From Neodothiora populina (lineage: Eukaryota), in contig NW_027191406.1 of the NCBI RefSeq assembly GCF_041146345.1, forward strand, positions 1,116,001 through 1,180,000: DNA of 64,000 nt, written 5' to 3'. Within the stretch, counting starts at the first letter, position 1, and each line of letters opens with the position of its first letter. This document shows, one piece after another, positions 1 to 64,000 of the stretch. The position numbers and the translations under genes were made by a program. Under the pieces are notes generated by a model. That model was not told the origin of the DNA, ran no database searches, and worked only from the letters and a program-made list of their open reading frames with translations.

Positions 1-650
1 AAGTATCGAATACTTTGCTTTACTGTCGTTCCATACCAACTCGTTCATACCCAAGAACATATCATGTATTCACATTAGTTTTCTCCTATTTAGCGTTTTG
101 CTTAGTGGATCAAGTCTCTGTTGATAGTACCAGCTGATTCATATAGATTTGACTCGTTTCATACCAACCGACAAGCTCACTCAAGAATTGCTCGTTTGCC
201 GCAGCCAACGGCTGTGTCTTTTATCCTCGCTTACTAACTCGTTCGTCACTAAGTCCACATACTCGTTCACTAGTCAAGGCAGGCAGCAAAGGCGCTCAAA
301 GGAATCACAGGATCGAATGTAAAGGCCTCGTGCAAATGTAGAATTACGGCAAGCTATCTGACTTCAGCTATACACGTCCCCGCAACACCGCTCCATGTAA
401 GAGCTCTGTGGGTGGGCTACTCCGTCATCGTTTTTCATTCATCTTTCGTTTCCCGTGGGATCCCTGTGTCCCCTTTCTATGGTTGCGTCCTTGTTGATAG
501 GGAAATCAATCGTGGTCGTTATCGTCATTTTTGAGCTACGTTGTCAATCTCCCCTTGCTCAGGTCTGTCTGTCTCATTTCCTCTTCCTAGGAATAGCAAC
601 GCATGTGCTGCTGACATGACTGTCGATCGGCATGATGGACCAGAAGAAGC

Positions 651-1916
651 CTAAGTCAAAGCCCTAGGACATCCCAAGTTATCCATCTGCGCGCCCAACT
701 TATTCTCGACGAACGTCAGCGCCTCAACAGTAGGCGCGAGGATAGAGTTGAGATAGCTGGGGATACTCTGAGTGGTCAATTGATACAGCAAGCACTGGGT
801 GTTATCCGCAGACAACAAACCATCAGAGGTAATAAAGTCGCTGCCCCAGACAGGAAGAGCATCAAATGCGCCATCACTGGTCTTGCCGCCGAACAGCACG
901 GGCTTGATCAAGTACATGGCGAGGATCTCGCGCGTGACGTCGGTGTTGGTGTACGGCGCCACGCGGTTCGTCCAGTTATCGGGGATCTTCTCACCCGAGG
1001 TGGGCACCCAGTTCCCGTTGCTGTCCTGGGTTGTGCCGAAGAAGGACGAGATGGTCTCGACGTCGGGCGCGTAGTTGTGCGTGCCGGAGGGCATGAGCTC
1101 GTACAGGAAACTGGCGGCACCGAAGAGCAGAACCGACAAGGGCCCGAAGTAGAAGTTGGGGTTGTCGGACAGTGATTGCTGGTAGCGCTGGTAGCGGTAC
1201 TCGGCCAGGTTCTCGCGGTTGTACACGCCGCCGGTGGTGTCGGTCATCATGGTGAACAAGGTCTTATTGAAGGAGAAGTTGTCGCCGTTGGCGAGGAAGA
1301 AGTCGTTGCGGGTGAGCGAGGTGTCGGCTTCGAACTTGTTGTGGCCGTCGAGACCCGGTTCGCTGCCCGTGAGCACTGGGCTGTAGGATGTCCTGGTTGT
1401 GGCATCGCAACCGATGGACAGCTTCTCTGTAACGAGGTCACCGTCAGTGAGGGTGAGACCTAGCACAGCGAGCAAGTTTGCCAGGTCGTAGCCGACGTTG
1501 TAGACGTTCTGCTGCGCGTCTACAAGTTCGCTGTAGGTGACGATGCCGTCACGGGCGAGGAAGCCGTGGTTGGCTGCGGCGTTCAGACCCGGGCATGGGC
1601 CTCTGATGTCGTTGGGTCCAGGAGCGATGAACTTGTGTGCGTCGTCGCCGGGAGCTGGGACTTGGAAGCCACCGACTCCATTTCCTGCAGTGCCGTTGAA
1701 GGCGTGGTTGTAGGGGTAGTCGGGGCTGTATGGGGCTGCAGGCACATGGTTGGCATTGAAAGGGCAGGAGGCTGCACTGCCTGGTCCTGTGCCTGGTTGT
1801 TGACGCTTGGAGTGACGGGCCTTGAGGAGGGAAGAGTCGACTCCAGGCATTTTGGCCACGAAGGGGAAGGCCGAAGCCGTGGAGAGCAGACCCGTGAGAG
1901 CTATGATGAACTTCAT
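651..1916 (-). CDS. Secreted heme-thiolate peroxidase (long unspecific peroxygenase/chloroperoxidase family), intronless
   Basis: Signal peptide MKFIIALTGLLSTASA; proximal heme motif RGPCPGLNAAANHGF; HNKFEADTSLTRND matches the UPO E-x-D-x-S-x-T-R-x-D motif; C-terminal Cys pair (QCLL, LGCP); strong C/G third-position bias. Confidence 0.93.
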   Translation of the reverse strand: MKFIIALTGLLSTASAFPFVAKMPGVDSSLLKARHSKRQQPGTGPGSAASCPFNANHVPAAPYSPDYPYNHAFNGTAGNGVGGFQVPAPGDDAHKFIAPGPNDIRGPCPGLNAAANHGFLARDGIVTYSELVDAQQNVYNVGYDLANLLAVLGLTLTDGDLVTEKLSIGCDATTRTSYSPVLTGSEPGLDGHNKFEADTSLTRNDFFLANGDNFSFNKTLFTMMTDTTGGVYNRENLAEYRYQRYQQSLSDNPNFYFGPLSVLLFGAASFLYELMPSGTHNYAPDVETISSFFGTTQDSNGNWVPTSGEKIPDNWTNRVAPYTNTDVTREILAMYLIKPVLFGGKTSDGAFDALPVWGSDFITSDGLLSADNTQCLLYQLTTQSIPSYLNSILAPTVEALTFVENKLGAQMDNLGCPRALT

Positions 1917-17400: not shown

Positions 17401-18914
17401 CTTTCCACAGTCTTTGTCAAAACTGGTTCGGCATGGACATGAAGATCATGACAGGACTTGACCAAGCTGATGCAGATATTTTCCTTACCACCGAGGTTGG
17501 ATTGGAACAAATACAAGGCGAGCTTGACAAAATCATGGAGAAACAGTCCGACAAGGATGCGCAGATTTCGGTCAAGGGTACACCACTTCTGGTGCTTTGT
17601 ACTTCAGCATCAACAGCAAACTATATGCTGCACAATCAGCGGATGGGTGAGACTGCTGATATTGCGGAATACATATCACAACCGTAAGTCAAGCCTCGAT
17701 CTTCGTGTGATACTCGTGAAACTGACATTCTCTCAGCTGCGGTCCTCGAAAATTGGCCAAATCTCTTGTGCTATGCCTGGATCGACTTGAGGCGTTGAAG
17801 AAACGTGCAAATTCGATGCCAACTTTCAACGAATCGATCCTCGGCCCATTGGCAGAGGAGATAGAAGAAAGGCGTCCGAAGAGTGAGGGTGCTCAGGACA
17901 AAACCTCGGAGCAATCGCTCCCATTGCGCGATGCAGGAAAGAGTACGAAACCGAGTAGACCTTCGGTGAAGACTTTGAAAGGTATGTTCTTTGTCTATTC
18001 GACCTTGATGACTAGGCTATAGATGACTGACGAACTGCGTAGATGCAAAAGATGATGGTGATACCGAGCACGATCGCATTTCTCCCAAATCCGCAAAGAG
18101 CCCCTCATCGCTCAGGAAATTGGGCGGATCACTTAGAGGCGAAGCCAAGCCAGCAACGCCGGAACGTGTTCGCAATGTTCTGCTCGTCGACGACAATAAG
18201 ATAAATCTGCAACTCCTTGTTACCTACATCAAGAAGACAGGTCACAATTATACTACAGCCGGAGATGGCCGCCAAGCCTTCGAAGCATACAAGAAGCAAT
18301 GTGTGGACGTGTCCCCTACTTCGGCATCTCCACAGAAATCCTCACCATTTGACTATATACTCATGGACGTCTCTATGCCAATCATGGACGGCCTCGAAAG
18401 CACACGCCTGATTCGCGCTTACGAGCGCGATAACAATATCCGGCCGACGACCGTGGTCGCGCTGACGGGCTTGGCATCAGCAAGTGCGCAGCAAGAGGCG
18501 TACTCAAGCGGCGTCAACACGTTTATGACAAAGCCGGTCAAGCTGAAGGAGCTCGGTCGATTACTTGACAAAGAAGAAGACGATGACGGCAACGTCGGCG
18601 TGGAAAGTCCTGTTGATGAAAAGAAGCCTGCGTCGGACAGCAAGAAGCAGACGCAGCAAGACTCGGCCAAAGCACAAGAAGTGAAAAACAAGACCGAGTC
18701 TGAAACAGTGCAGCAAAAGGCGGGACAAAGCGGCGAGATCAAAGCCAGCAGTGGCGGTAGTAGCAATGCCGACTCGAAGGTCAATACCAAAGTGGCCGAG
18801 AAAGAGAAACGAAATGCGTCGCCAACGATAACACAAAGAAAGACTTCGGATCCTGACCACGACAAGAAGAAAGACCACAGCAAATCGGCGAAGAAGAAGC
18901 CATCTCACCACTAA
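14494..18914 (+). CDS. Hybrid two-component histidine kinase (GAF-HisKA-HATPase-receiver); introns 14559-14634, 15188-15248, 16510-16560, 17684-17736, 17982-18042
   Basis: Exon 1 MCDSP..EREFYK joins YLQP. GAF (FRFYAGVPI), H-box SISHELRSPLHGILG, N-box NLFGNALKYT, G-boxes DSGKGI and GTGLGL, receiver VLLVDDN..ILMDVSMPIMDG..TKPV. All five introns have GT..AG ends and preserve the frame. Confidence 0.93.
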
Positions 18915-48589: not shown

Positions 48590-51500
48590 ATGGATCAACA
48601 ACAGTTTGTCGGACTCCTCGAGAGTCTGATGCAGCGTAAGTTTTGTTTTTATTAGGAAGGCACGACGCTGCTGCAGAGGGAAAGAGACAAAAGCCATGAG
48701 AAGAAAGAGCAAGAACATAGCGCAAGAGTCCGAGTTGCTAATTCTTTCTTCTTCTTCGCCTCAGCCGACACGGAAAAAGTCAAGGCCGCAACCTCGACAC
48801 TCAACAAGTCGTACTACAACCAGCCCGCCTCGCTGCCCATTCTCCTCCACATCCTCATCTCTCACCCTTCGCCACAGCTCCGCCAACTCGCGGCCATCGA
48901 GTCAAGGAAGCTTTCGACCAAGCACTGGGCAAAGCTCTCGGAGCCCGAGAAGCAACAGATCCGCCAGCAATTGCTCGAGTCAACATTGAACGAGCAAGAG
49001 TCTCTGCCTCGACACTCCAAGGCGCGCGTGATTGCAGCAATCGCCAAGGTCGATCTCGAGGATGGACAGTGGGCAGACCTGCCTGGTTTCCTGCAGCAGG
49101 CAGCCACCAGCCAGACTCCCAGCCATCGTGAAGTCGGTGTCTACATCATCTACACTCTGCTCGAGACGATGCCCGACATGTTCCAAGAAAACATGTCTGC
49201 CATGCTCAAGCTGTTTGGCCAGACCATCCAGGACCCCGACAACGTCGAGGTCCGCATCAACACCATGCTCGCCCTCTCCGAGCTTGCCATGGTGCTGGAC
49301 ACAGACGAGGACCAGAAGTCCCTCAAGGCCTTCCAGGACACCATCCCTCACATGGTTCACATCCTTCAGCAGACCATCGAGGCCGGCGACGAAGAGCACT
49401 CGATGCAGGCCTTTGAGGTCTTCAACAAGCTTCTCAGCTACGAGTCCGCCTTCCTCAATGCCCACTTCGGCCAGCTCATGCAGTTCATGATGGACATGGC
49501 CGCCAACCCCCAGATCGACGAGGACTCTCGTTCCCAGGCTCTGTCCTTCCTGATGCAGGCTGTCAGATACCGCAAGCTCAAGGTCCAGGCTCTCCGCATC
49601 GGTGAGCAGCTCACCAAGAAGGCCCTCCACATCGTCACCGAGCTCGGTGATCTGTCCGCCGACGACGAGGACGTCACCCCTGCCCGCTCTGCTCTCGGCC
49701 TTCTCGACATCATGTCCGAGTGCCTCCCTCCCAGCCAGGTCGCCGTTCCTCTCCTCCAGTCTCTCGGCCCTTATATCCAGAACGAGAACCCCGACTACCG
49801 CCGTGCTGCCATTCTTGCTCTCGGCATGTGCGTTGAGGGTGCTCCTGACTTCATCAGCACCCAGCTCGTTGAGATCCTTCCTATGGTTCTCCACCTTCTG
49901 GAGGACCCGGACGTCCGCGTTCGTTCTGCAGCGCTCAACGGAGTCGCAAGACTCGCCGATGATTTGGCCGAGGAGATGGGCAAGGAGCACGCTCGCTTGA
50001 TCCCTGCTCTCGTCAAGAACTTCGATCTCGCCTACCAGAACCTCGAGGCTGGTGGCGAGCACGTCAGCATCCTGAAGCAGAGCTGCATGGCCCTCGACTC
50101 TCTGATTGAGGGTCTCGAGAAGGAGGATGCCGCCAAGTATGTCGGCGAGCTCGTTCCCCGAATCAGCCCTCTCTTCAACCACTCGGACATCAAGGTCCAG
50201 ATCCCCGCCATTGGTGCTGTTGGTTCCATCGCTTCCGCCTCCGAGGAGGCCTTCCTGCCTTACTTCGAGCCTACCATGCAGGTTCTCGGCCAGTACGTTG
50301 GCAAGAAGGAGAACGAGGACGAGCTCGAGCTTCGTGGCATGGTCTGCGATTCTCTTGGCAAGGTCGCCTCTGCTGTCGGCGCTGAGGCATTCCAGCCGTA
50401 CGTTCAGCCTCTTATGCAAGCTTCCGAGGAGGCTCTGCATCTCGACCACCCCAGACTCCGCGAGACCAGCTATATCTTGTGGAGCACCATGGCCAAGGTG
50501 TACGAGGAGAACTTTTCTCCCTACCTCGAGGGTGTTGTCAAGGGTCTTATCGACTGCCTGCAGCAGGACGAGACCGAGTCCGAGGTCACTCTCGGCGAGG
50601 AGGCCAAGGACCTTATGGGACAGGAGGTCATCATTGCTGGCAAGAAGATCAAGGTCGCCGATGTCAGCGCCGATGACGACGACGACGAACACTTCGACAT
50701 GGAGGATGATGACGATGACGACTGGGATGATCTCGGTGCCGTGACCGCCATCGCTATGGAGAAGGAGATTGCCGTCGAGGTCATTGGTGACATTCTTACC
50801 CACACCCGCGGCACCTTCCTGCCTTACTTCCAGCAGGCTGTCGAGGTTGTGCTGCCTCTTGTCGAGCACACCTTCGAGGGCATCCGCAAGTCTGCCATTG
50901 GCACTATGTGGCGAGGTTACGCCTGCCTCTGGGGTCTGGCCGAGGGCAGCGGTATGGCCAAGTGGCAGCCCGGCCTTCCTCTCAAGGTTCCTGCTACCGA
51001 GGACCTGATGAAGCTCGCCACTCTTATCATGACCGCCACTGTCACCCTTTGGCGGGACGAAGTCGACCGGTACGTTTCTCTTTTTTTCTTTTTTCCTTTC
51101 TATGCCCTTTCCGTGATGAACCAACCATTTCGTTATTACCCAGCTCACTTCGACGCAAAATATACGATTGAGAAGAACGCGAATCTACTTCTGACTAGCA
51201 CCTGATACTTTTTGATTTGTCTTTGATGATCTCGAGAATTGTTGACTGACGTTCAAACAGCGGCACCGTCACCGACATCAACCGCAACATGGCCGCCACA
51301 CTGAAGCTCTGCGGTCCTTCTATCCTCACTGTCCACCTCGGCGAGAACACTGCACCCCCTGTCCAGCAAATCACCGAGGTTATCCTCGAGATCCTCCAGA
51401 AGAAGCACGTCTGCCAGCAAGACCTTGATGGCGAAGACGAGGGCGACGAGGACATGGAGTCATCCGAGTACGACTGGCTCGTCATTGAGACCGCCATGGA

Positions 51501-52161
51501 GGTCATTACCTGCCTTGCTGCGGCTCTTGGCGAGTCATTTGGTGAGCTCTACAAGATCTTCGAGAAACCTTGTCTCAAGTATGCTTCCGGTCAAGAGAAG
51601 TACGAGCGCAGCGCTGCCGTCGGCACCATTGCCGAGTGCATCGGAAACATGGGCTCCGCCGTCACTCCCTTCACTTCTGGCTTGATCAAGGTCCTCCTCA
51701 AGCGTCTTGGTGATGAGGATGCCGAGGTCCGCAGCAACGCTGCTTATGGTACCGGACTGCTCTGCGAGAAGAGCACCGACGAGAAGGAGATACTCGGCAA
51801 CTATGCTACTATCCTCACCAAGCTCGAGCCTCTGCTTCACCAGAAGCAAGAAGCTAGACTGTTGGACAACTCTGCTGGCTGCGTTGCCCGCATGATCAAG
51901 GCTCACCCCAACAACGTTCCTGTCGAGCAGGTGCTGCCCGTTCTCGTTCAGCTGTTGCCTCTGCGCGAGGACTACGAGGAGAACGAGGCCGTCTTTGAGA
52001 TGATCGTTGCTCTTTACCAGGCACAGCACTCTGTGATGCAGTCGCTTACTCCTCAGATCATTCCTGTTTTGCAACAGGTTCTCAGCCCACCCGAGGATCA
52101 GCTCAGCGACGAGACCCGAGCCAAGGTCCAGCAGCTTGTCCAATATCTCCAGTCTCAGTAG
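48590..52161 (+). CDS. KAP123: Importin beta-4 / karyopherin Kap123; exons 48590-48635, 48765-51069, 51261-52161
   Basis: IBN_N-type start (LRQLAAIESRKL), HEAT repeats, acidic loop, AMEKEIA, EVRSNAAYGTG and LPLREDYEEN; canonical introns; strong codon bias. Confidence 0.92.
51108..51199 (+). ncRNA. Intronic box C/D snoRNA, probable snR71/U29-type guide for LSU rRNA 2'-O-methylation
   Basis: Inside the 191-nt importin intron 51070-51260: C box GTGATGA 51113-51119; guide ACCCAGCTCAC 51138-51148, complementary to conserved LSU GUGAGCUGGGU; D' TCGA 51150-51153; C'-like CGATTGA; D box CTGA 51191-51194. Confidence 0.8.
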
Positions 52162-52756
52162 ATTGGAGGCTTTTAGGGAGATGAGAGACACGATGTTTAC
52201 GACACGAAGTGGTAGGGAACAAGGATGTCCAGTGAAGACTGACGCGGACGGACTTTGGAAGGAGAGCTGAAGATGAAATATACTGAAGACAAAAACAACA
52301 AGATAGAAAAAACAGTATACCCCCCCGTTTTGTAACCCCCTCAAATATTTTTTGTATATAGACGAATGAAGGCATTTTTCTTGCTCTTTTTTTTGGTTTC
52401 TGTATGTCCTCACTGTTCTGCATGCTGTTCCGGGTGATTACGAAGAAAGCCAAGTCACGTCTCGCGAGTAAGGTGTTGTCCGAGGGAAGATCAGTCGGAG
52501 ATCAAGAAGGTAGGTTGTAAAGTAAAACAGAAAGTTTCATTATTGAATCGCTCGCTAATCATTATAGGTAGTCTTTCGACCTCAGAGCAGCAGGTGCAAA
52601 GGTAAAGCAAGCAAGGTAAGAAAAGCCATAGGTGCTATCCCCTCCTTTCATCTCCTTCCCCCCACTCCTAGCTCTCTCCCTCCCCCTCATATCCCATCCT
52701 TCCCTCTCCCCAGTCCCTCACTGTTCCTATCAAAGAAAAAGGAAATGAGGGTGATA

Positions 52757-52966
52757 TCACATGACAGAACAAGGAATACAGCACACCTCGCAATCACAGC
52801 CAGGACCACAGGGGATATCGATGCATGGTTTCGTGCCTGTTGAGAGCTTTACTGGTTTCGCGCCCAACACCAATGGCGCTGTTGCAGAGATCGAGGACGA
52901 CGACGAAGATGATGTGCGGGCTTCTGTGCGCGAAGCATAAGCGGATATGCGTCGGGAGGTGCACAT
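52757..52966 (-). CDS. Small Ser-rich peptide with Cys-rich tail and CaaX (CSVM), 69 aa; paralog A
   Basis: Ends ..KPCIDIPCGPGCDCEVCCIPCSVM*; paralog at 54890-55084; canonical 5'UTR intron 53036-53111 (GTAAGT..ACTAAC..CAG) and TATATAA at 53326-53332. Confidence 0.78.
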   Translation of the reverse strand: MCTSRRISAYASRTEARTSSSSSSSISATAPLVLGAKPVKLSTGTKPCIDIPCGPGCDCEVCCIPCSVM

Positions 52967-53325
52967 TTCCGTCAGGTGTGTTTATTGCCTTGATTGGTTG
53001 CTTGGGAGGTAGTGAGTTGATATGTGGACAACAAGCTGGTTGGGATGGGGTTAGTCGTTTGGATTCGATAGTCTCTTGTCCGATGATGCGTGCGTATCTT
53101 GCGCTACTTACGTTCAGCAGTCTGAGACTTGAATGCTTCTTACTGGCTGTTCGGATAAGGATGTTGAGAGTGGTCGGAGTTGATGGTATTAGGGCTTGGA
53201 CCCTTGTGTATCAAGTTTCGAGATTGCACAGTGAGTCGAGGTATAGGAGGTATGATAGATGTCTGGATGATATCGAGATGTTTACACTGACAAGGAAAAG
53301 GAAGGCACTCGAATTCGAATACCGC

Positions 53326-53332
53326 TTATATA
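53326..53332 (-). promoter_or_regulatory. Putative TATA box of CaaX peptide gene A
   Basis: TATATAA on the minus strand, followed by a pyrimidine-rich tract and then the 5'UTR intron. Confidence 0.5.
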
Positions 53333-54889
53333 TGTCACACACACACCTCCTCCTCCTGCGCATACATATACAAAGCATCCAATCGGGAGATCGTCTGTCA
53401 GTTCAATCTACAGTACTCGATTCGTCGCTTGTGCCACACGTAGACATCACACACAGCCATCCAGCCAATGATGACAGTGATGATGTGTACGTCTACCTGC
53501 ATCTCTGCGTGCACAGCCTGCGTGTCTGTCGTCCCCTTGCCTCGTGTGGATGTGAAACACGCCCCCGCGTGGATCATGTTGCAGTATCACCTTATGCACA
53601 GGGAAAGTGAGGCGGTGTTGAACATAAAACACCATGTAGAGCCTCCGACTTACGACAGATGTGTTTCTATCCAGGGTCTAGGGTATGCTGTACTCGGACG
53701 TAATTTGTGGCTGTGTTTTGTTTACTTCGAGTACCTGTACTGTACGCACAAGCAAAAGAAGCAGACTTAAGTACAAGTCTTTTGTTATCGGCGGTGGTTC
53801 AAGCTGTAGTCAGTACACGTAATTATTGTATCGTGGCTGAGTGCTGGCGAGCATAGTTAGGTGGTTTAACTACTACGTGTGATTTGTTGTTTAGAAACAG
53901 AACTGGAAGTGGATCTCACTTCGCTATAGGCTATAAGATGTGATGCATTACATAGTGCTTTTGGCAGAGTATATCGTGCTCTCTGGTTGATGTTCTACCA
54001 GGTTACAAGGACCATACTATGCTCCGCACCACTGTTCATCTGGCCCCATGGCCGTCCGTGGACAACCTTCTTGGAGACGGAGTCGTAATCCTGTGGCGGT
54101 GCACATACCCCGGTCTTAGGTACACAATAAAATGAGCAATGACGTACATACATGAAGGTGCTACAAGTATATGAAGCATCGAATGTCTGTGAGCTATTTC
54201 CTTCGCCAGTTCCATGGTCTATGCGTACACTGGAATCATTTTAGCCGCGGAGATCTTCTGGTTAAGATAATTAGGTCAAGGTAAAAGTAACAGATGAGAG
54301 TAAAGCGGGAGTAAAAGAAGTTTTTGGGTTCCGCGGATAGGGTATAGTAGATGACGCTGCTACGCGGAGTAAGGTAAGATGGTGATTCTTCTCGCCGTTG
54401 TAACTCACAATTGAGACTGTGCCTTGGACATGTAGCTTTTACCTTTGCTCGTAGCAGCTTTGGAGATGGCAAGAATCCATAGACAAAAGCGAGATAGTAT
54501 TGTACAGACAACATTGCATACAGTGTGTAGTCCCTCGACCCGAGTACTGAATGCCCTGGCCAAGGACCTCGATATAGCAAAACGGTGGCGCGCGCCTCTC
54601 CACGCACGCCGACGTCATCTCACTATATAGGTAAACACTGCACTTGTTGTTATTATAGTAACATAGCGGCTGTGATTCCATAACCAAGACTTTTCCAACC
54701 CTCTACCAAGCCACAACCGCAAGCCTGTTTTCTTTCCTTGTTGGCGTCCATCCTGACAAGCCTACCTTACCTCACGCGCATAAGATCTGGCCCGACTCCT
54801 CTTTGAAATCTTTCTCCTCTCTTTTTGTACCTCTGCCGCACCTACTGTACAGTACTGTCTACCACGAAATCCTAGTAACAACAACAAAA

Positions 54890-55084
54890 ATGCCAAACAC
54901 AATCTCTCTCTCCTCGGGCACAAGTGCCATCACCTCGTCGTCCTCGGCCTCGTCGTCTTCGTCGTCTGCGACGTCATCCGGATCGGTGGCAAAGGGCGTC
55001 AAGCGATCGGTGCCAGGCGTCAAGATGCCTTGTTGGTGCGGAGACGACTGCAGTTGCTGTATTATTCCTTGCTCGGTCATGTAG
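54890..55084 (+). CDS. Small Ser-rich peptide with Cys-rich tail and CaaX (CSVM), 64 aa; paralog B
   Basis: Strong start context caacaacaaaaATG; ends ..KMPCWCGDDCSCCIIPCSVM*; paralog at 52757-52966. Confidence 0.8.
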   Translation: MPNTISLSSGTSAITSSSSASSSSSSATSSGSVAKGVKRSVPGVKMPCWCGDDCSCCIIPCSVM

Positions 55085-55339
55085 AGTGCGATCCGCGACA
55101 AGGCGTTGTTTTGTTGCAGAGCTGCTGGAAGGAGCAGCAAAAAGAAGAGGAAAAGAAGAAGAAGCAGAGTAAATACTTTTGCTTCTGTGGTTGAGAGGAG
55201 GCGACGACGCATGCGACTCGCTGGCCAGCGACGACGATCGAGTGGTGGCGGGAACGCACATGTCAAGCTTTCGAAAGCTCAGAGTTCTTTTGGAACGACG
55301 GGAGCGGGAAAGACATTGGAAATCCCGCCATCGAATATC

Positions 55340-55849
55340 ATGAATCCTGCGACATCGACATCGACATCGACATCGACGACAACAACGACGACGACGACTG
55401 TATCAAACAAAGAGGGCAAATGCTCCGAACGCGACCAACGACCATATTCCACTCCCCGATTCCCATCATCTATATCATCACTATCACCTACTATTCAAGA
55501 CCCCCCAACAACCCTTTCCTCTCTGTTCCCCTCCACCATCTTTCAGATTAGAGATCCAACCACCACCATCACCGCCCTCAACCCCATTAATTCATCATCA
55601 CCCACTATCATCAGCGTCAGCACCAGCAACGAAACAAACGATACCCGCAACTCCCAGACCCAGACCAAGACACAGCGACAACAACAAGGAAAGGCTCAAG
55701 CGCGCACTAGGCAACTCATGGTTCGGGCGCCGCGAGAGCTGGGCCGGGACATTTTATCTGCATTAAAACGTGTGTTGATGGCAATGAGTGGGTATTATGC
55801 ACTTTTTTTGTTCCTTGCGATGATGGCGTTTGACGAGATGCGCGGATGA
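55340..55849 (+). CDS. Possible low-complexity Thr/Ser-rich protein with a C-terminal hydrophobic helix
   Basis: Open frame from the ATG at 55340; ends ..VLMAMSGYYALFLFLAMMAFDEMRG; no recognisable family. Confidence 0.35.
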   Translation: MNPATSTSTSTSTTTTTTTTVSNKEGKCSERDQRPYSTPRFPSSISSLSPTIQDPPTTLSSLFPSTIFQIRDPTTTITALNPINSSSPTIISVSTSNETNDTRNSQTQTKTQRQQQGKAQARTRQLMVRAPRELGRDILSALKRVLMAMSGYYALFLFLAMMAFDEMRG

Positions 55850-56640
55850 GTGAAATGTCGATATAGGTCGACATGCATGGGCGTGGATGATTATGCGTAT
55901 CTTTGATTGTCTCAGTCCGTCTGTCTTTACTTGAACCGCGGGCGTCGATCTGTGCTAGCAACCAGCCGGGCCGCCTACTACCAAGTCTCGATCTGTCTTG
56001 AGGACTAGCTAGACAGGCAATCGCACAAGCGAGTAAAGGCTGGGAACGAGCCAGCCAGCCAGTCCTTGTCCATCTTGGAGACTAAACCTGGTGCGCAAAC
56101 TAGACAAGACGAGATAGGGTAGATGATACAGGCAAAACAGGCACGCAGAAAAGGAAGCGGGAAAGTCACGATATCCCTACTCGCCGATAACTTTCTTTAT
56201 ATACCCATATGACTCCGATACGATACATGCTCAATATTCTCAATCTCCATGCCATCTAAGGTACCTATCCATATCTCTTCACTATCTTGATCGACCCTCT
56301 CCATCCGCCTGTACCTTTCTGTTCACAAGTCGATATGAGAAAAGGGAAACACAATGAGTAGTGAATTGCTTCTTTCGGTAGGTGGTATACAGGTCTGGGC
56401 TTATGTGTAAAAGTACAGTACGTATACAGAGAGATGAAAAGAAAAGAAAAGAAATAAGAAATAAGAAATAAAGAGAAGACGGGGGTATAGAGAAAATCAT
56501 CATCCAAACAGCAACCGCTCTCTTTCCCTCACTTTGCGTCTCTCAGCATGACGAAAGAGCAACGCAGGCAGGTCTTTTCTTCCTAAAGTACGAGATTCCG
56601 TGAGATCAGCCAGAATACTAAAAGAACAGAGACAAAGCGC

Positions 56641-59600
56641 TCAGCCCCGTATCTCCCCCTCCTCACTGCCATACTCAGACGGCTCATCTTCCGCGTCTTC
56701 TCGGCGCCCTCTCAACTCTGCTGGACTGTCATCTACGTCATTGCCAGGGGAAGAGGAGATGCCCTGCCACGCGCGCCGACTGGGCGTGTCGAACACCATG
56801 GGCGTGAATTGTTTCCTTATTGGCGAACTGATGTCATCGTTCTCCCTTCCTTTGTCTTCTTGTTGTCTGTTTGTCGTCGTCGGCGGTGCTTGAGGAGGAG
56901 AAAAAGCGGTGTCATCGCGAGTCGCCAAGGACGGACCGAAAAACAAACCCGCGTTCGACGCGCCGTGCGATTCATAGAACGGCGAAAGCGGCGTCCCAGA
57001 GTTGTGAGAGTACTCTTTGTCTCTCCTGTTGCTTGCTGCTGCGGCGTGGTAAGCTTTTGCGGCCGCTGTTGCCGCTGCTGATGCCGAAGAGGGCGAGAAC
57101 GGCAGAGAGGAAGACGATGAGGAGACGGGCCGGTAATAGGCTGTTTTGCGGGGACTGTTGGTCGCCGATGTCGACGATGCTGCGGCTGATACCCATCGCG
57201 AGGATTCGTGGAGGAATTCTTCGTTTAGGTCTTCGAGTTGTTTCGCTTGGATTCGGAGAGAGGCGAGCTGTGGTTGATTAGTGATGAGAAAGACGATAAT
57301 CATGAGAAAAAAACTTGCCGTTCCTTCCAGGGTCGTCTTTGGGGACTTGCGTTGCCTCTTCTTGCTAAGACTGCTGGTGCTGCTCTTGTTGCCGTTCTTG
57401 TTCATGACATTCGACGACGAAGAAGGCAAGATCGATGGAGCTGATGCCGAGACTCCTCTGATCTCTCCCTCTTCAGACCCTTCAGTCAAGGCATCATTGC
57501 TGTCTGCAGCCACGCTGACATCGACATCTTCTTCATACATATCGTCATCACTATCAGCGCCAGCATTCACGTTCAAGGAAAACGCCGCGAATGGGTCCAG
57601 AATCTCCAAGTCTCCATCTTCGTCACCGATCATCACTCCTGACCCTGCACCAGCACCAATCAGCTTTCTCCTCAGCGCACCAAGACTTTCCCTTTCGGTC
57701 TCCAATTCACGTCTTGCAACCTCGAGCGCAAGCTCAAGATCCGAAGACTTGGACTTCAGATCCTCCATTTCTCGGATGAACGTTTCGCGATCCGTGCGGT
57801 CTTCTTCCGAATGGTGGATCGCTTGTCGCGCTTCGTCCAATTGACATCGAAGATCAGACATTTCCGTCGTCAAGTTTGCGAGTCGTTCGTCTCGGTCGTG
57901 GGTGACTGGGGAGACATAAGAGTCAGTCGACACAGCTGCATTGTCGACCTGCGCTTGTAGTGCTGAAATCGTCTTTTCACGGTCTTGAAGTAGTTCAGAG
58001 TGTGCCCGCTGGACCTCACTGAGCTTTTCGTCGCGTTCGTGCAATGCAGACGAGAATCTGGTCTCTGACGCCTCGAGAGCATTGGCCAATTGATCTTGCA
58101 GAGACGAAACGGTCTGTTCTCTGTCTTGCAACAATTCGGAGTGGTCTTTTTCGGTGGCTGCAAGAGTCGCGTTGAACTCGTCACGCAGACGAGCGACACG
58201 ATCGTCAGCTTCTTCCGTTGACTCTACCTCTTTGTCAGTTGAAGAGTCAACATCAATGTCACGAGTCTCCACTGCTCGACTCGATGCAGCTGCAAGAGCC
58301 TTGTCGTGCTCCGCAGTCAATTCAGCAATAGCACGGTTATGCAAAGCCTGTAACTCTGCTGTCTTGAGTTGCGCAGCATCCAATTCCTCTTTCAGTGAAA
58401 ATAGCTTTGATTCATAGTCTGCGTGAAGGGCGTTGACCTCATCAACGTGGGCATCCTGGACCGAAGCAACATGTGCTTTGAGTGCTTTCAATTCTTTCTG
58501 CCAGTCGTCGGATTCATCGTCGCTGTTTCCTGACAAGGATGCCTCACGAGCTTTGGTCGCTTCAGCCGTCAGCTCATGCACCTTGGTCTGGAGTGTCTCG
58601 ACCTCTCTCTTGTGTGTGCCTTGTAGGTCGATCAACTCGCTCGAGCGACTTTCACCAGTCGACGCATTCGCAGTGGTCAACTCGTCCATCTTGGCCCTCA
58701 AGCCTTCCAGCTCTTTCTCGTGTGCGTCCTTCAACTCCATTACCTCGTCTGAAGGGCCATCGCGAGCCATGGCGATCTCGACTGTCATCTTGTTCACCTT
58801 GGCTTGCAACGCCTCGATCTCCTTTTCGTGCTCATCTTGCAGATCCAACAATTCATCCGCGTGCTTGTCCCGTATAGCAATGACACAATACTCTGCTTCG
58901 TCCTTTTGTCGTTCGAGCGTCGCGGTCTTCTCTTCTAAGTTCTGCAGAGGTGCAGAGTAGTTCTCCTTGAGCTCTTTCTTCTCCTTTGCGTGCGTCTCAA
59001 GCAGTGTGTCGTGGCGTTGGGTAAACTCTTTTTCGACATTCGCCAGGTGAGTCTTGAGTTTCCCAAATTCCTTATTCAAAGCATCATAGTCTGCTTGTAT
59101 GGAAGCAGAGGCATCAGAAGTAGCCTGCAACTCGGAGATTCTGCGTTCGAGTTCTTCGATAAGGTCGGCTTGCTCGGCTCTCTTGTGCGAAGTCTCGCCC
59201 AAGACATGCTCAAGATCATCCTTTGCGGTGACCAGGAAATCATGTTTCTCTTGCAAATCTCTCTTAGCTGTCTCCAGTGACGACAGACGTTGATTGAGTT
59301 CCTCAATTTGATCGGCTTGTCTTGCACCCTTCTCAGAGGCTTCTCCGAGGACATGCTCGAGATCTTCCTTTGCTTTGGCCAAGAATTCGTTCTTCTCTTG
59401 TATCTCCCTGGCAGATGCTTCGGACGAGGCTAGCTTGGTCGTGAGATCTTCGATCTGATCAGCTTGTTGCGCGCCTTTCTGCGATGCTTCCCCAAAGACA
59501 TTCTCGAGGTCGTCCTTGGCTTTGGCCAAGAAGTCGTGTTTCTCTTGTAAGTCGCGCGCCGACGCCTCGTATGCGGCCAGTTTACTGGTGAGCTCCTCGA

Positions 59601-62600
59601 TATCCTCTGCTTGCTTGGCCCCCTTCTCGTGGGCTTCCCCGATCGCACGTTCGAGGTCGTCCTTCGCTTTGAAAAGAAAATCGTGTCTTTCTTTCAGATC
59701 ACCCGCTGAAGCGCCATAGGTGGCAAGCTGGCTTGATAACTCGGCGATCAACCTGCCCTTCTCCGAAGCATCCTGAGAAGCCTCGTAGCCCTTTTCGGCA
59801 GCTTCCTTAAGTACATGCTCGAGGTCGGTCTTTGTGGCGACCAAGTCGTCGTACTTTTCGCGCAGGTCCTCGATCTGGCGCCCTTTTTCTTGTGCGACCT
59901 TTTCGGCAATCTCGCTCCTCTGCACCGCTTCGCGCAGTAGTTGCTCGAGATCACCCTTGGCTGAAGCAAGACTGTCGTGTCTTTCTTGCAGTTCTTTGAG
60001 CGGGGCAGAGCCATCTCCGTTATCGAATTTGGCTGCGAGTTCGCCGATCTCCTTCTCATGAGCTTCACGCAATATGCTGAGCTCACTGGCGTGGGCGTGA
60101 CGTGCTTCCGAAATTTGCATCTCGAGGTTCTGTTTTTCTGTTTCGAGGTCAGACACAGTCGCTTCATTGGCGACCTTCTGATCAGCAAGATCTTTCTGTA
60201 ACTTCTCAAATCTGACGCGCAATTCTTCTGCTGCAGTATGAGCAGCCTCGAGCTTCTTCTCGAGCTCGGCGTTGGACTCCTTCAACATCGCAATCTCGGC
60301 TTCTTTCACCGCCGAATATTTTGCCTGCTCAGCATGACCTCGTTCAAAGCTTGCAATAGCCTCCTGAAGTTCATCCATGCCAGCCAATGCGTCCCTTGCT
60401 TCAGTACTAGCACGATCAGCTCTAGTCCTAGCACTGTCCAGCTGCCCTTCTAATTCCGAAGTCATTTGTTGCAAGGCGACAATGTCAGCATCTCGCGTGG
60501 CGGTGTCCTGATCTTGACGCTCCCGATGTTCTTCGAGCACGGTCTGTAGATTCTGGATTTGGATCTGTGCTTCCTTTGCCTTTGTGTCGGCCTCGCTCTC
60601 GGCAGATCTTGCAGACTCCAGAATCTTCTCAAGTTCCACAACTTTGTCGTGGATTTCGGTCACCTCGAGATCCTTGGTCGACGACTCTTGAGAGTGGCCT
60701 TCCTTGATTGCCGCAATCTCTTCTTCCAATTCCTGTTTGAGCTTGGAAATCTTGGCCTGAGAGGCTTCTTCTGCTCTGAGAGTAGCATCGTCCGCAGCAG
60801 ACTTTGCGGCATTCAGTTCTCTTCCTACTTCGTCGATTGCCTGCTTCAGGCGAGCGACTTCTGCTTCAGCGCCTTCTCGCGCTTTTGTCTCGGCCTCATC
60901 AGCAACGGACTTGGCGACTTCGAGACTGCCGTTCAGTTCTTCAATCTGCCATTCCAGGTCTTTGATCTTAGCATCTTTCATTTCCGTTTCTGCGGCACGC
61001 GCGTCGTCAAGGCCTGCAGTAAGTTCCTCGACTTGAGCTTTCAGGCCGCCAATCTCGGCATCTTTTCCAGTCAAATTCTGAGATTTATCCTCAATCTCCT
61101 TGTTAAGCTGAGCCACCTTTTCTTCATGCAGAGTGTTCGTCTCGTCAAACTTCTGCTGTAGTGCATCAAGTTTTCCTTGTAGTTCATCGACAAGCTTCTG
61201 GACTTCTGCACTCTGGGAGGCTTTACCCTGCAGCTCCTCAATCTTGGTGCTGAGTTCCTTGGCTTCGTGGTCATGTTTCTGGGTCGCTTCTTTGGCTTCG
61301 TGCTTCAGCTTGCTGACTTCCTTCCTCAGAGTCTTGACAATTGACGTTGTGGTCGCCGCCTCTTCTTCGTTGGCTGCAGTGGCGTCGTCAAGTTCCTTAC
61401 GGAGAGTATCGACCACCGACTGTAGGCTTTTGACTTCATCTCCCTGGCGCTCCCTGACCTCACCGGATTCCTGCTGGAGTCGTTCGAGTTCCGATTGCAT
61501 CTTGACCAATGATTCTTGGGCACGAGCCAGCTCACCGTCTTTAGCTTTGCTAGCTTCGGTCTCATGATCCTGTATGGATGCAGACTCCTTCTTCATTGCT
61601 TCGATAGTCGAGGTGAGCTCCTCAATCTTGGCTTTTGTCGCGGACTGAGATTCGTTGAGGCGCTCTTGGAGTTCACGTGATTTCTCCTCTAATTCCTCCA
61701 TGGACACCATTGCTTGTCGAGTCTCCTCTTCCTTTTCTTGCTTCAGCTGCGCATTGAGAGTTTCGAATTCCTTGGCGTCTTTCTGCAGCTTCTCCATGGC
61801 TGCATTGAGTTCCTTGACCTTGCTGGCATGTTCTGATTCGGTGTCGGTCCGGGCTTGCTGTAGCTTATGCATCTCGCCCTGTAGACTTTCAACTACCTGA
61901 CTTCCATCGGTGCCTTCGCGCTGAAGAGCTTCCAGCTGAGTTTGCAGGTCCGCAATGACTGAATCATGAGTTTTCTTTTCGTCGTCCCGCTCCGATGCAC
62001 TCTTCTCGCTGAGATTCTTCAAGGTTTCCAACTCTGCTTGCAGAGAACCCACGAGTCGCTCGGCTGTCTTTGCCTTTTCCGCCGCACGAGTAACTTCTTC
62101 GTTTTGTTCTCTCTGTGCTTTGTCCGCCTCCTCACGCATGCCCTGTAAGATGTCCTCGGAAGCCTTGAGAGCGGCATTCCTCTCGGCCATTTGAGCTTTC
62201 AGTTGTTCCTGGAGGGTGGCGAGTTCTTGCTGTAGTGTTTCTGCCGTCCCTTGAGCTTCAGAGGCGGCGTGCTTCAATGCCTCACTCTCTTTCTCATTAC
62301 TGTTTCTCAGCTCAGCCAATTCGTCCTCGAGTTTCTTTCTCAAACCTTTGCCCTCCGTGACGTCTGTAGCATGCTGCTTGCGCAAAGCATCCATCTCCTT
62401 CTGCATCCGTTTAGTGGCAGCTTCGGCGTCAGCGGCTGCCTTCCTGAGAGTGTTGCTCTCTCCTCGGATTTTGGCATTGTCGGCATCAAGTTGTTTCTGA
62501 CACCTGTCAATCTCAATCTCGAGATCCCTGATGATTTGAGCAAGCTGTTCGCGATCCTGCTCCTTCATCTCGATTTGCCGCTGGAGGTCTTTCTCATTGT

Positions 62601-64000
62601 CCGTGGCTGCGACTTTGCTTTGGTCCAGTGCGGCCTGGACGTCTGCGATTCTGGATTCGACACCCGAGAGCTTCGAGTTCTTCTGTTTCTCTAACTCTGA
62701 ATTGAGAGATGATATTTCCTCGGAATGGCTGGTTTTCAGTTGGTCTATCTGTGCTTTTGCGGACTCGGCAGACTTGCGCTGTGTCTCGAGATCCTTTCTG
62801 AGGGCGGCGATCTCTTTGGCGTGGTCTGCTTTCGCTTGCTTCTCACTCTGCATGCGTTGCGTGTCAGCGTTCTTACGCTCTGTTTCGAGTTCCTTGTGGA
62901 GTGCTGCCACTTCTCGGGCACGGTCGGCTTGAGTAGATGCTAGCTCCTGCTTCAGATCGGCTATCTCTTTGGTATGACTGCTGGCTAGATCCTCTTTCAG
63001 AGCAGTAATTGCTTTGGCGTGACTTTCTTCTAGTTGTTTCTTGTCGGATTCGCCCTTGTTCAAAGAGTCTGCGAGTTGTTTTTGTAGGTCGTTGATCTTG
63101 TCCTGTACCCCTGCCATGGCTTTTGCATGTTCAGTTCTCGTCTTGTCGCCTGATGCCAGCTCTTGCTTTTTGGCGTCGTCGAGCTGTGAGTGAGAAGTCT
63201 TGAGTTGTGCGCGTACTTCGGTCAGCTCTCTAGCCTTGGAGGCCTCGAGAGAATTTGCTCTTCGCCTGGCTTTCTCGGCGTCGGCCTTGAGCTGCTTGAC
63301 CTCGGTCTCATGCCCTGCCTTGACGACGGCGACCGTCTCAGCCTCGTCTCGCAGTTTAGCCAGTTCCTTTGCGTGCTCTTCCTCGACGCCTCGTCGCTGC
63401 TTTTCCACGTCGGCGCGTAGCGCACTCAGCTCTTTCGCGTGAACGACTTTGAGTCTCTCGACCTCCTCGATGGCCTCGGCTTTGAATCTGGCAAACTCGG
63501 CCGCTCTTTCTTCGAGTTTGCGAGGAGACTTGTGATGCGTGTCTGTCGGCGAGATGACTTCTTGATTCCGTTCCAGCCTCTCGATCTCGGCCCGCAGTTC
63601 GCGAATCTCGGTCTGCATGACCTCTCTCATGTTCGCCTCGCGCAGCAGGTCGCTCATTATGCGCATGTCCTTTTGTCGTTGCTCTTCTGTCGTGGAGGAT
63701 GTTCCGTTGGATGGGGCGGTCAGGGGACGCCGGGTTTTCGATGGCACCATTTCGGAGCGAGAGCGCATGTGGCCTCGGCCATTGTTCGACGCAAAGTCGA
63801 GATCAGAGGATGCGGCAAACTGGCGGAGTTTGGGTGGTGAGCGCAGGGAGAAGGCTGAGTGGATGGGTTTGAGAGGAGATGTGGGTCTTGAAGTCGACGT
63901 TGGTGCTCTGGATGCCTCGCTCCTAGTAGGGCTGGATGGCGCAATGGACGAGAGCGTGTCCTCTCTACCATCCACACTGGCGCCATCCTCGTCTTTGTCT
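56641..64000 (-). CDS. Giant coiled-coil protein (more than 2400 aa), 5' end outside the window; probable GC-AG intron 57268-57318
   Basis: 7.3-kb open frame rich in E/K/A/L/Q heptads; the frame stays open to the window edge (the ORF-track start is a GTG); no catalytic domain is visible. Confidence 0.88.
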   Translation of the reverse strand, partial: DKDEDGASVDGREDTLSSIAPSSPTRSEASRAPTSTSRPTSPLKPIHSAFSLRSPPKLRQFAASSDLDFASNNGRGHMRSRSEMVPSKTRRPLTAPSNGTSSTTEEQRQKDMRIMSDLLREANMREVMQTEIRELRAEIERLERNQEVISPTDTHHKSPRKLEERAAEFARFKAEAIEEVERLKVVHAKELSALRADVEKQRRGVEEEHAKELAKLRDEAETVAVVKAGHETEVKQLKADAEKARRRANSLEASKARELTEVRAQLKTSHSQLDDAKKQELASGDKTRTEHAKAMAGVQDKINDLQKQLADSLNKGESDKKQLEESHAKAITALKEDLASSHTKEIADLKQELASTQADRAREVAALHKELETERKNADTQRMQSEKQAKADHAKEIAALRKDLETQRKSAESAKAQIDQLKTSHSEEISSLNSELEKQKNSKLSGVESRIADVQAALDQSKVAATDNEKDLQRQIEMKEQDREQLAQIIRDLEIEIDRCQKQLDADNAKIRGESNTLRKAAADAEAATKRMQKEMDALRKQHATDVTEGKGLRKKLEDELAELRNSNEKESEALKHAASEAQGTAETLQQELATLQEQLKAQMAERNAALKASEDILQGMREEADKAQREQNEEVTRAAEKAKTAERLVGSLQAELETLKNLSEKSASERDDEKKTHDSVIADLQTQLEALQREGTDGSQVVESLQGEMHKLQQARTDTESEHASKVKELNAAMEKLQKDAKEFETLNAQLKQEKEEETRQAMVSMEELEEKSRELQERLNESQSATKAKIEELTSTIEAMKKESASIQDHETEASKAKDGELARAQESLVKMQSELERLQQESGEVRERQGDEVKSLQSVVDTLRKELDDATAANEEEAATTTSIVKTLRKEVSKLKHEAKEATQKHDHEAKELSTKIEELQGKASQSAEVQKLVDELQGKLDALQQKFDETNTLHEEKVAQLNKEIEDKSQNLTGKDAEIGGLKAQVEELTAGLDDARAAETEMKDAKIKDLEWQIEELNGSLEVAKSVADEAETKAREGAEAEVARLKQAIDEVGRELNAAKSAADDATLRAEEASQAKISKLKQELEEEIAAIKEGHSQESSTKDLEVTEIHDKVVELEKILESARSAESEADTKAKEAQIQIQNLQTVLEEHRERQDQDTATRDADIVALQQMTSELEGQLDSARTRADRASTEARDALAGMDELQEAIASFERGHAEQAKYSAVKEAEIAMLKESNAELEKKLEAAHTAAEELRVRFEKLQKDLADQKVANEATVSDLETEKQNLEMQISEARHAHASELSILREAHEKEIGELAAKFDNGDGSAPLKELQERHDSLASAKGDLEQLLREAVQRSEIAEKVAQEKGRQIEDLREKYDDLVATKTDLEHVLKEAAEKGYEASQDASEKGRLIAELSSQLATYGASAGDLKERHDFLFKAKDDLERAIGEAHEKGAKQAEDIEELTSKLAAYEASARDLQEKHDFLAKAKDDLENVFGEASQKGAQQADQIEDLTTKLASSEASAREIQEKNEFLAKAKEDLEHVLGEASEKGARQADQIEELNQRLSSLETAKRDLQEKHDFLVTAKDDLEHVLGETSHKRAEQADLIEELERRISELQATSDASASIQADYDALNKEFGKLKTHLANVEKEFTQRHDTLLETHAKEKKELKENYSAPLQNLEEKTATLERQKDEAEYCVIAIRDKHADELLDLQDEHEKEIEALQAKVNKMTVEIAMARDGPSDEVMELKDAHEKELEGLRAKMDELTTANASTGESRSSELIDLQGTHKREVETLQTKVHELTAEATKAREASLSGNSDDESDDWQKELKALKAHVASVQDAHVDEVNALHADYESKLFSLKEELDAAQLKTAELQALHNRAIAELTAEHDKALAAASSRAVETRDIDVDSSTDKEVESTEEADDRVARLRDEFNATLAATEKDHSELLQDREQTVSSLQDQLANALEASETRFSSALHERDEKLSEVQRAHSELLQDREKTISALQAQVDNAAVSTDSYVSPVTHDRDERLANLTTEMSDLRCQLDEARQAIHHSEEDRTDRETFIREMEDLKSKSSDLELALEVARRELETERESLGALRRKLIGAGAGSGVMIGDEDGDLEILDPFAAFSLNVNAGADSDDDMYEEDVDVSVAADSNDALTEGSEEGEIRGVSASAPSILPSSSSNVMNKNGNKSSTSSLSKKRQRKSPKTTLEGTASFFLMIIVFLITNQPQLASLRIQAKQLEDLNEEFLHESSRWVSAAASSTSATNSPRKTAYYRPVSSSSSSLPFSPSSASAAATAAAKAYHAAAASNRRDKEYSHNSGTPLSPFYESHGASNAGLFFGPSLATRDDTAFSPPQAPPTTTNRQQEDKGRENDDISSPIRKQFTPMVFDTPSRRAWQGISSSPGNDVDDSPAELRGRREDAEDEPSEYGSEEGEIRG
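59113..59700 (-). repeat. Four tandem 147-bp (49-aa) intragenic repeats in the coiled-coil gene
   Basis: Units begin DLKERHDFL / DLQEKHDFL / EIQEKNEFL / DLQEKHDFL at 59700, 59553, 59406 and 59259. Confidence 0.85.

Follow-up and report, generated by a model that had tools for sequence, protein, structure and literature searches.

In the 64,000-nucleotide (nt) stretch of Neodothiora populina DNA analysed here (NCBI RefSeq assembly GCF_041146345.1, contig NW_027191406.1, positions 1,116,001 to 1,180,000 of the forward strand; hereafter the window), two small open reading frames (ORFs), called ORF A and ORF B, are divergently oriented and encode peptides ending with a cysteine cluster and a CaaX box. 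We conclude that they are very probably real genes of a family published from Leotiomycetes as "putative a-factor", a family of small proteins that occurs across Pezizomycotina and within which the two are paralogues of ancient divergence. By analogy with other proteins having such ends, their products are probably farnesylated. They may also be the precursors of an exported signal resembling the a-factor pheromone, a reading which we place first and hold tentatively. The putative a-factor family is thus not confined to Leotiomycetes, as it is also present in Dothideomycetes and Pezizomycetes, and it can consist of two old paralogues arranged as a conserved divergent pair.

The divergent pair ORF A and ORF B

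An initial annotation, made from the letters of the window only, had described the two ORFs as a divergent pair of paralogous genes, and their coordinates, sizes and layout were recovered as it gave them (Table 1). ORF A starts with MCTS and continues with a Ser run and with Lys37, Lys40 and Lys46; its Cys cluster follows at C48-C66, and its CaaX box is CSVM. ORF B starts with MPNT and has a Ser run, a KR dibasic pair (K38 R39), K45 and the tail PCWCGDDCSCCIIPCSVM. The elements said to be common to both (the Ser run, SAT, AKxVK, G-x-K..PC, CGxxCxC, the CC pair and a terminal IPCSVM followed by the stop) are indeed present in each ORF, the tails contain 7 (ORF A) and 6 (ORF B) Cys, and the last seven codons differ by two synonymous changes and by the stop codon. 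Inspection of the two products revealed no hydrophobic leader in either, and neither gene contains an intron.

Aligned over their full length, ORF A and ORF B are 49% identical, and BLASTP aligned their last 34 residues with 53% identity, 26.6 bits and an E-value of 2e-6 for this single comparison. When all 237 ATG-ORFs of at least 50 amino acids (aa) in the window were compared with one another by BLASTP, the pair ranked 3rd among 629 non-overlapping ORF pairs, below chance pairs at 29.3 and 27.7 bits. Judged inside the window alone, the resemblance is not beyond chance, and the reality of the genes therefore rests on homologues found elsewhere. That rank is also what speaks for the view that the two ORFs are merely open frames in a long intergenic region and resemble each other by coincidence, a view which the relatives described below make extremely improbable. 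At the DNA level, A and B are alike only in their runs of Ser codons and in an inverted match of 20 nt between the tails, and the flanks do not match, so the pair is not an inverted duplication with matching flanks.

Relatives in named organisms and their annotation

A profile of the two tails was searched against 1.84 billion representative proteins and gave 9 matches at E<=0.001, 7 of which are true relatives; P0003 and P0005 were rejected, being unrelated repeat proteins that match only part of the tail profile. A word-indexed profile search added three further proteins, from Myriangium, Pseudocercospora and Planoprotostelium, and the word-indexed protein search with ORF B alone returned 5 candidates, none at E<=1. 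Named relatives were obtained from Cercospora beticola, Pseudocercospora musae, Myriangium duriaei, Cryomyces minteri, Pyronema omphalodes and Planoprotostelium fungivorum. According to the lineage look-up, C. beticola, M. duriaei and C. minteri are Dothideomycetes, P. omphalodes belongs to the Pezizomycetes and P. fungivorum to the Amoebozoa; Pseudocercospora musae we take to be a Dothideomycete. This distribution was drawn from annotated proteins and metagenome contigs, and the lack of matches in Sordariomycetes and Eurotiomycetes should not be read as absence of the family from these classes.

Type B, the form represented by ORF B, accounts for most of the relatives; it begins with Met-Pro-(Pro)-Ser-Thr, followed by a Ser/Thr-rich spacer, a Lys and the tail PCWCGDDC[QS]CC[IVL][IL]PC-x-[VI]-M. 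Homologues of ORF B include P0001, P0004, P0009 and P0010, and the annotated P0001, P0004 and P0010 are 40-55 aa long. The Cryomyces minteri protein (P0002) is of type A, with the tail RPCIDIPCGDGCDCQFCCIPCVVM and 74% identity to ORF A over the tail region. The Myriangium protein (P0010) ends with CWCGDDCQCCCIPIPCVVM, in which CWCGDDCQCC is joined with CIPIPCVVM. In a 34-row alignment (A6), the start Met, C48, D53, C54, C57, P60, C61 and the final Met (M64) are invariant and W49, C50, G51, D52 and C56 nearly so. Almost all fungal members have a Lys 1-3 residues before the first Cys, and the cysteine cluster of the family spans 14-19 residues. The AlphaFold2 model computed from the same alignment contains no secondary structure and no confident fold (mean predicted local distance difference test, pLDDT, of 53.5; predicted template modelling score, pTM, of 0.15), which would be expected for a processed peptide.

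All named homologues are labelled hypothetical, uncharacterised or of unknown function. A search for longer forms retrieved 13 proteins, 12 of which are upstream-extended gene models or intron read-throughs; in every one of these 12 fungal or metagenome models, the sequence upstream of the internal Met is entirely different. Fused long forms were consequently rejected as mis-called, with the amoebozoan protein discussed below as the sole real fusion. The expectation that gene callers would miss these genes was thus borne out, in that they miss or mangle the family, and whatever the peptides do, most annotations lack the genes or model them wrongly.

These models also bear on the idea that each of the two ORFs is just the terminal exon of a larger, spliced gene. 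It draws on the frame of ORF B, which has no earlier ATG and is open for 76 codons upstream of its ATG, on the fact that fungal genes are spliced and on the tail introns of some relatives. The wholly different upstream parts of the 12 long models argue against it, as do the annotated homologues of 40-55 aa and the Met-Pro-(Pro)-Ser-Thr or Met-Cys-Thr starts shared by the relatives, upstream of which nothing is conserved. In addition, an in-frame stop lies 5 codons before the ATG of ORF A, and the ATG of ORF B stands in an A-rich context (acaaaaATGcc), such as is typical of fungal start sites. We consider terminal exons very improbable.

Interrupted genes and selection on the coding sequence

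Scanning metagenome contigs with the back-translated motif CWCGDDC gave at least 118 loci, and the 118 listed comprise 39 with intact family genes, about 12 interrupted candidates and about 67 chance matches in unrelated sequence. Half of the interrupted candidates were flagged by the filter (6) and the other 6 were added by eye (L014, L045, L075, L087, L089 and L095). In 9 of these 12 (7 distinct sequences), removal of one GT..AG intron of 50-122 nt restores an end of the form ...CC[IV][IL]PCT[VI]M-stop, and the 5' sites of these introns are of the fungal type, with branch points resembling CTRAC. For L095 only a doubtful solution was obtained, and for L075 and L077 none.

The tail introns of L001, L014, L021, L024/L030, L045, L059 and L087/L089 lie at two recurring places, either right after CWCGDDCQ (donor offset 24) or within or after CCI[IV] (offsets 32-35). 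L095 (621 nt) is peculiar in having a PAKAD-repeat N-terminus and the tail CWCGDDCQCCNIPCTVM followed by Arg-Lys-stop, hence no terminal CaaX box unless it is spliced.

Selection was estimated from the ratio of non-synonymous to synonymous substitution rates (dN/dS) in 11 independent close pairs (22 sequences) taken from 32 unique type B coding sequences; L016, L033, L035, L040, L058, L061, L064, L090, L103 and L118 were left out of the pairs. For the N-terminal part, which played no role in finding the loci, dN/dS is 0.28 (Fisher p 8e-12), with 69.8 synonymous differences at 274.7 sites against 57.2 non-synonymous ones at 697.3 sites. After the motif the ratio is 0.08 over a stretch that is partly ascertained by the filter, and the seven motif codons themselves are fully ascertained by the search pattern. 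Among all 496 type B pairs, 373 had a usable dS and 370 a ratio, the N-terminal median being 0.50 with 87% of values below 1. Ratios above 1 between distant subgroups were not used because those alignments cross low-complexity Ser/Thr stretches at saturated dS. Type A offers a comparison independent of the search pattern, as the type A gene of L004 was found as a neighbour: between its tail and that of ORF A (23 codons), dS is 1.55 and dN 0.11, a ratio of 0.07.

ORF A and ORF B are under purifying selection, and the family is compatible with splicing in relatives. The initial annotation had attributed the synonymous differences between the two tails to selection on the protein rather than to a DNA repeat, and the ratios of 0.28 for the N-terminal part and 0.07-0.08 for the tails, together with the unmatched flanks, support this. 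Coincidental open frames are effectively refuted by the homologue and selection data: homologues of the same architecture exist in named fungi of two classes and on dozens of metagenome contigs, dN/dS is far below 1, intron removal restores the CaaX end in relatives, and the A/B pair is found again in L004, where conservation does not extend beyond the coding tails.

Relation to the Leotiomycete family

Wilson, Coetzee, Wingfield and Wingfield (2023, PLoS One; PMC10569646) screened annotated Leotiomycete proteins of at most 100 aa ending with CAAX or CPAX and proposed, by computation only, the product of B. cinerea BCIN_13g03330 as a "putative a-factor pheromone". Homologues of 45-64 aa were reported in at least 111 of the 124 species studied. 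As listed in their File S10, these sequences have an MCTS start, a S/T-rich stretch, ..IVK.., ..GKTKC.., a Cys cluster and an end of the form CCCIP(IP)C[TSV][VI]M, with the Pseudogymnoascus entries ending in IPCSVM (PMC10569646). Before this candidate, according to the same paper, the a-factor-type pheromone of Pezizomycotina was unidentified outside Sordariomycetes.

The window ORFs resemble the Leotiomycete family in their small size (64 and 69 aa versus 45-64 aa), in their CaaX ending (CSVM being among those listed), in their Ser/Thr-rich N-terminus, with the MCTS start of ORF A shared by most S10 sequences, in the Lys-containing stretch before the first Cys and in being mostly unannotated. 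They also match the Leotiomycete tail ...C..C....CCCIP(IP)C-aaX, a comparison made by eye and through bridging sequences. The link with the family is supported by these bridging sequences (P0010, L087/L089, L014 and L075), which combine both forms: L087/L089, L014 (= P0013) and L075 carry an MCTST..LVN.. N-terminus in front of a CWCGDDC tail. There are differences too. The window contains two divergent paralogues whereas the available S10 list gives one sequence per species name, and the window belongs to a lineage other than Leotiomycetes, its nearest named type A relative being a Dothideomycete.

The initial annotation had called the system undescribed, adding that a match to an already characterised family would remove the novelty. 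Because the genes match the family for which a putative a-factor role in Leotiomycetes was proposed in 2023 (PMC10569646), that part of the claim has to be dropped. Its suggestion of an atypical pheromone or lipopeptide fared better, in that it agrees with the published label of the family, a label itself computational. The CWCG motif (CWCGDDC in ORF B) was not found in 13 of the 14 supplementary files of PMC10569646, the strings IPCSVM and CWCGDDC had no occurrence in the literature searched, and in the same literature the gene identifier BCIN_13g03330 appeared only in PMC10569646, with no citing paper, as far as accessible, seen to extend the family. Four elements were accordingly not found in print in the literature searched: the A/B paralogue pair, the presence of the family in Dothideomycetes and Pezizomycetes, the tail intron positions and the ubiquitin-like fusion.

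Possible processing into an a-factor-like signal

Both ORFs end with CSVM, a box of the farnesylation type as the initial annotation had stated, and a final Met in the CaaX box indicates farnesylation (PMC3068285). The order of the precursor elements (Met-Cys or Met-Pro at the start, then a Ser/Thr-rich spacer that varies, a conserved Lys, the Cys cluster and a CaaX box ending with Met) would fit the following scenario. If the precursors followed the usual CaaX pathway and the a-factor model, their last Cys would be farnesylated in the cytosol, -SVM clipped and the new C-terminus methyl-esterified. On the a-factor model again, the N-terminal spacer would be trimmed near the conserved Lys, and the resulting Cys-rich lipopeptide would be exported by a Ste6-type ATP-binding cassette (ABC) transporter and sensed by a Ste3-type receptor. 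Such a signal would possibly not be specific to a mating type. We keep an exported lipopeptide as the leading reading because of this a-factor-like architecture and of the pheromone gap in Pezizomycotina outside Sordariomycetes. If the family were a true Ste3 ligand, its members would be candidates for the missing pheromone of Dothideomycetes, the class that includes Cercospora and Pseudocercospora.

The architecture can be compared with that of classical a-factor precursors (N. crassa mfa-1, M. grisea MF1-1, S. macrospora ppg2 and yeast MFA1/2), which like the window ORFs are short, lack a signal peptide and end with a CaaX box. Yeast a-factor precursors presumably start with MQP[SI]T. Sordariomycete precursors start with MPSTTTQTK.. 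or MSPSTKN.., a S/T-rich extension like that of the window ORFs, the classical CaaX box ends with Met or Ala, and the genes are often multi-copy with long untranslated regions (UTRs), according to PMC3068285. A pheromone-like multi-copy trait is seen in our set as well, with a tandem pair carried by L037.

HPP1 of Trichoderma reesei (Schmoll et al. 2010) is another useful comparison. This protein of about 48 aa ends with (L/I)GC(S/T)VM, a "CPAX" motif whose a1 position is polar as in CSVM, and it has Kex2-type dibasic sites (PMC3068285), while ORF B and its closest relatives keep a KR pair. In contrast, HPP1 contains (L/I)GC(S/T)VM three times, including once at the C-terminus, whereas the window ORFs have a single terminal IPCSVM, no internal copy and a Cys cluster instead. 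Its locus, between genes for Sec23 and a 14-3-3 protein, is unlike the window, and its role in male fertility is genetically proven (PMC3068285), whereas the role of the family studied here is putative. The KR pair of ORF B (55001-55006, K38 R39), about 10 residues before the Cys cluster, is kept only in the ORF B subgroup (L004, L071 and L086). It recalls the Kex2-type sites of HPP1, yet a cytosolic CaaX protein should not meet Kex2.

Several observations weigh against an exported pheromone. The first ones concern the peptide itself and its locus. None of the a-factor-type precursors printed in the accessible part of PMC3068285 has five or six extra Cys, unlike the window ORFs, and one of the two full classical precursors printed there is 26 aa long with a single Cys. 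Sordariomycete a-factor genes adjoin those for cyanate lyase, EBP2 and MYND (PMC3068285), and this synteny is absent here: the cyanate lyase, EBP2, MYND, Sec23 and 14-3-3 families were found in 0 of 80 flanking ORFs (20 loci) and in 0 of 31 window ORFs, synteny with Sordariomycete a-factor or HPP1 genes being a weak test across classes. A GY motif near the C-terminus, present in 87 Leotiomycete sequences and not universal there, is found in neither window ORF (PMC10569646 for the Leotiomycete sequences).

Others come from what has been published on the family, for which the literature searched contained no experiment on any member, the label being computational. In three heterothallic Leotiomycetes, mating type makes no difference to the expression of the homologue, B. 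cinerea BCIN_13g03330 is expressed most highly in sclerotia (198 reads per kilobase per million, RPKM), 11 of the 12 species that lack a functional STE3 retain the gene, and its conservation is unusually strong, all of which the authors themselves count as grounds for doubting a mating role (PMC10569646). Classical a-factor precursors, by comparison, evolve fast. Our own data point in the same direction, as the type B tail is almost unchanged between the Pezizomycete and the Dothideomycetes and even occurs behind a ubiquitin-like domain in an amoebozoan (P0012). In A. fumigatus, an a-factor-like pheromone, PpgB, has reportedly been identified by experiment (by Krappmann et al. in 2025).

Possible retention as a membrane-anchored cysteine cluster

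The amoebozoan protein (P0012, 85 aa, from Planoprotostelium fungivorum) aligns through its residues 8-68 with residues 7-76 of ubiquitin, its LNGG falling on the LRGG of ubiquitin, and the 17-residue type B tail CWCGDDCQCCILPCSIL follows directly. The similarity to mono-ubiquitin is modest (E of about 0.002), and the Pfam ubiquitin score of 22.3 bits lies below the cut-off of 25.4. The position of the tail directly behind the ubiquitin-like GG suggests that the Cys cluster and the CaaX box form a self-contained unit. In layout the fusion is like prenylated ubiquitin-fold proteins, and we would liken it to MUB/UBL3. The host is an amoebozoan which, judging by its name, feeds on fungi, and P0012 may have originated by gene transfer, by contamination or from an ancient module.

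Such a unit leads to another explanation, namely that the peptide stays in the cell as a farnesyl-anchored Cys cluster on the cytosolic face of a membrane, where it would bind Cu or Zn like a metallothionein, be S-acylated or be redox-active. We regard this as quite possible, with somewhat less confidence than the exported lipopeptide; the "a-factor" label would then be wrong, and types A and B may differ in their metal or membrane preference. It would account for the density of the cluster, 6-7 Cys within 17-23 residues arranged as C-x-C, C-x3-C and CC and kept across classes with conserved Asp, Gly and Trp. The strong purifying selection on the tails agrees with it, and so does the fact that each tail type is conserved in its own right, as type A is in the window, in L004 and in Cryomyces. 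The preservation of the tail from Pezizomycetes to Dothideomycetes, and after the ubiquitin-like GG of the amoebozoan, suggests an autonomous, cell-intrinsic module, and the findings of Wilson et al. (expression independent of mating type and high in sclerotia, and a gene kept without STE3; PMC10569646) can be read in the same way. In H-Ras, Cys just upstream of the CaaX box are palmitoylation sites (PMC3017061), a "second signal" placed as the Cys immediately upstream of the box in the window tails.

The resemblance to fungal copper metallothioneins consists in a dense set of C-x-C, C-x3-C and CC in a short, unstructured peptide, and several results count against pressing it further. Neither a metallothionein, nor a CYSTM, nor any other real family was matched by Pfam in ORF A and ORF B (E<=10) or in P0001, P0004 and P0010 (E<=1), and the tail profile had 0 matches in the PDB. 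The ESM Atlas gave only unnamed Ascomycota clusters (0.76-0.81) and an unrelated chordate family (0.79), all below the lead threshold. A conserved Trp is unusual in metallothioneins, and we know of no metallothionein with a prenylation signal; no farnesylated one was found in the abstracts of the literature searched. Moreover, the number of Cys outside the CaaX box varies, from 5 in type B and Leotiomycete members to 6 in type A and Myriangium, with a spacing that differs by subfamily, and a tail serving only as an anchor would leave as cargo a short and fast-evolving Ser/Thr stretch.

Put more generally, the tail CWCGDDCxCC..PC-aaX and its type A and Leotiomycete variants could represent an ancient, autonomous farnesyl-anchored Cys module of about 17 residues without any pheromone role, which we find possible and a little more doubtful still. 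Tethered by its lipid to the cytosolic side of membranes, it would hold a metal-thiolate cluster, be redox-active or be poly-acylated, and it would be conserved throughout Pezizomycotina and, in the amoebozoan, placed behind a ubiquitin-like domain from which it could be cleaved. Were it true, these peptides would form a class of small lipidated metallopeptides without described counterpart, and the Leotiomycete "a-factor" label would be mistaken. If the exported lipopeptide is not the answer, a very widespread, highly conserved and mostly unannotated farnesylated Cys-cluster peptide awaits a function and the published annotation needs correcting.

Genomic context

The divergent arrangement is conserved in the 1820-nt contig L004, where a type B gene (112..297, minus strand) and a type A gene (1215..1409, plus strand, with a Met-Cys start at 1266 and the gene at 1266-1406) have the same divergent orientation as ORF A and ORF B. 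At the DNA level, the two loci are similar only in the coding tails (81% over 68 nt for ORF A and 78% over 73 nt for the other tail), and no conserved non-coding block was found in the intergenic region, which may be the shared bidirectional regulatory region proposed by the initial annotation. Among the 118 loci listed, many of them short, a type A gene is present in L004 alone. L037 has two family genes in tandem, at 2165-2278 and 3092-3214 (both minus strand), the second with the variant tail KCSCISTDDCSCCCIPCTVM. This tandem, together with the divergent A/B pair, indicates that paralogue pairs arose more than once and in different orientations.

Table 1. Position of the two genes, their tails and the flanking features in the window
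Feature	Position	Strand	Remarks
ORF A (type A paralogue)	52757..52966	-	69 aa + stop
ORF A conserved tail C48..M69	52760..52825	-	C-x4-C-x3-C-x-C-x2-CC-x2-C-SVM
ORF A CaaX codons	52760-52771	-	
Region between both start codons	52967..54889	.	1923 nt; presumably contains both promoters
ORF B (type B paralogue)	54890..55084	+	64 aa + stop
ORF B conserved tail C48..M64	55031..55081	+	CWCGDDC-S-CC-II-PC-SVM
ORF B CaaX codons	55070-55081	+	
Importin-beta gene (IPO5/KAP123-like)	48656..52161	+	two long exons; on the ORF A side; context only
Large coiled-coil-like ORF	56641..63999	-	convergent to and downstream of ORF B; weak Pfam below cut-off

The importin-beta gene contains the Pfam domains TPR_IPO5 (3.6e-40) and IBN_N as well as HEAT repeats. 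The initial annotation had proposed to look for synteny next to KAP123, and none of the 118 related loci listed shows it (0/118). The large coiled-coil-like ORF, on the other hand, was found again by tblastn in two other lineages, on the downstream side of type B (identity of 56% over 70 aa in L040/L066 and of 30% over 896 aa in L001) and with the same convergent layout (L040:1121-5641 and L001:6558-12002, both minus strand). It is a conserved neighbour of type B genes, for which no functional link is claimed. A VHS-domain gene flanks type B in L001, L024/L030, L031 and L033.

Between the two start codons, TATA-like strings lie close to 53328 and 54624, and a single copy of the Ste12-type TGAAACA is found at 53553; over the whole window this motif occurs 11 times versus 10.8 expected, that is, at chance level. 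No tRNA was found in this region. A 261-aa ATG-ORF (281 aa from stop to stop, 52765..53610) has no Pfam family. The sequencing run X1 (probably DNA, contigs only) gave six small pieces on 49000-59000, none covering either ORF, and is uninformative on expression.

Just downstream of ORF B, a Thr/Ser-run-rich ATG-ORF of 212 aa (55211-55849, plus strand) has neither a Pfam family nor a match in the related loci, and may be due to chance or lie inside a long 3' UTR. Farther away, the GAF, HisKA/HATPase_c and response-regulator domains of adjacent ORF pieces at 14618-18911 (plus strand) suggest a single hybrid histidine kinase gene interrupted by introns. The other genes of the window include those for Rav1, Tam41, a HECT ligase, a PP2C, a P450, a GH16 hydrolase and a protein kinase.

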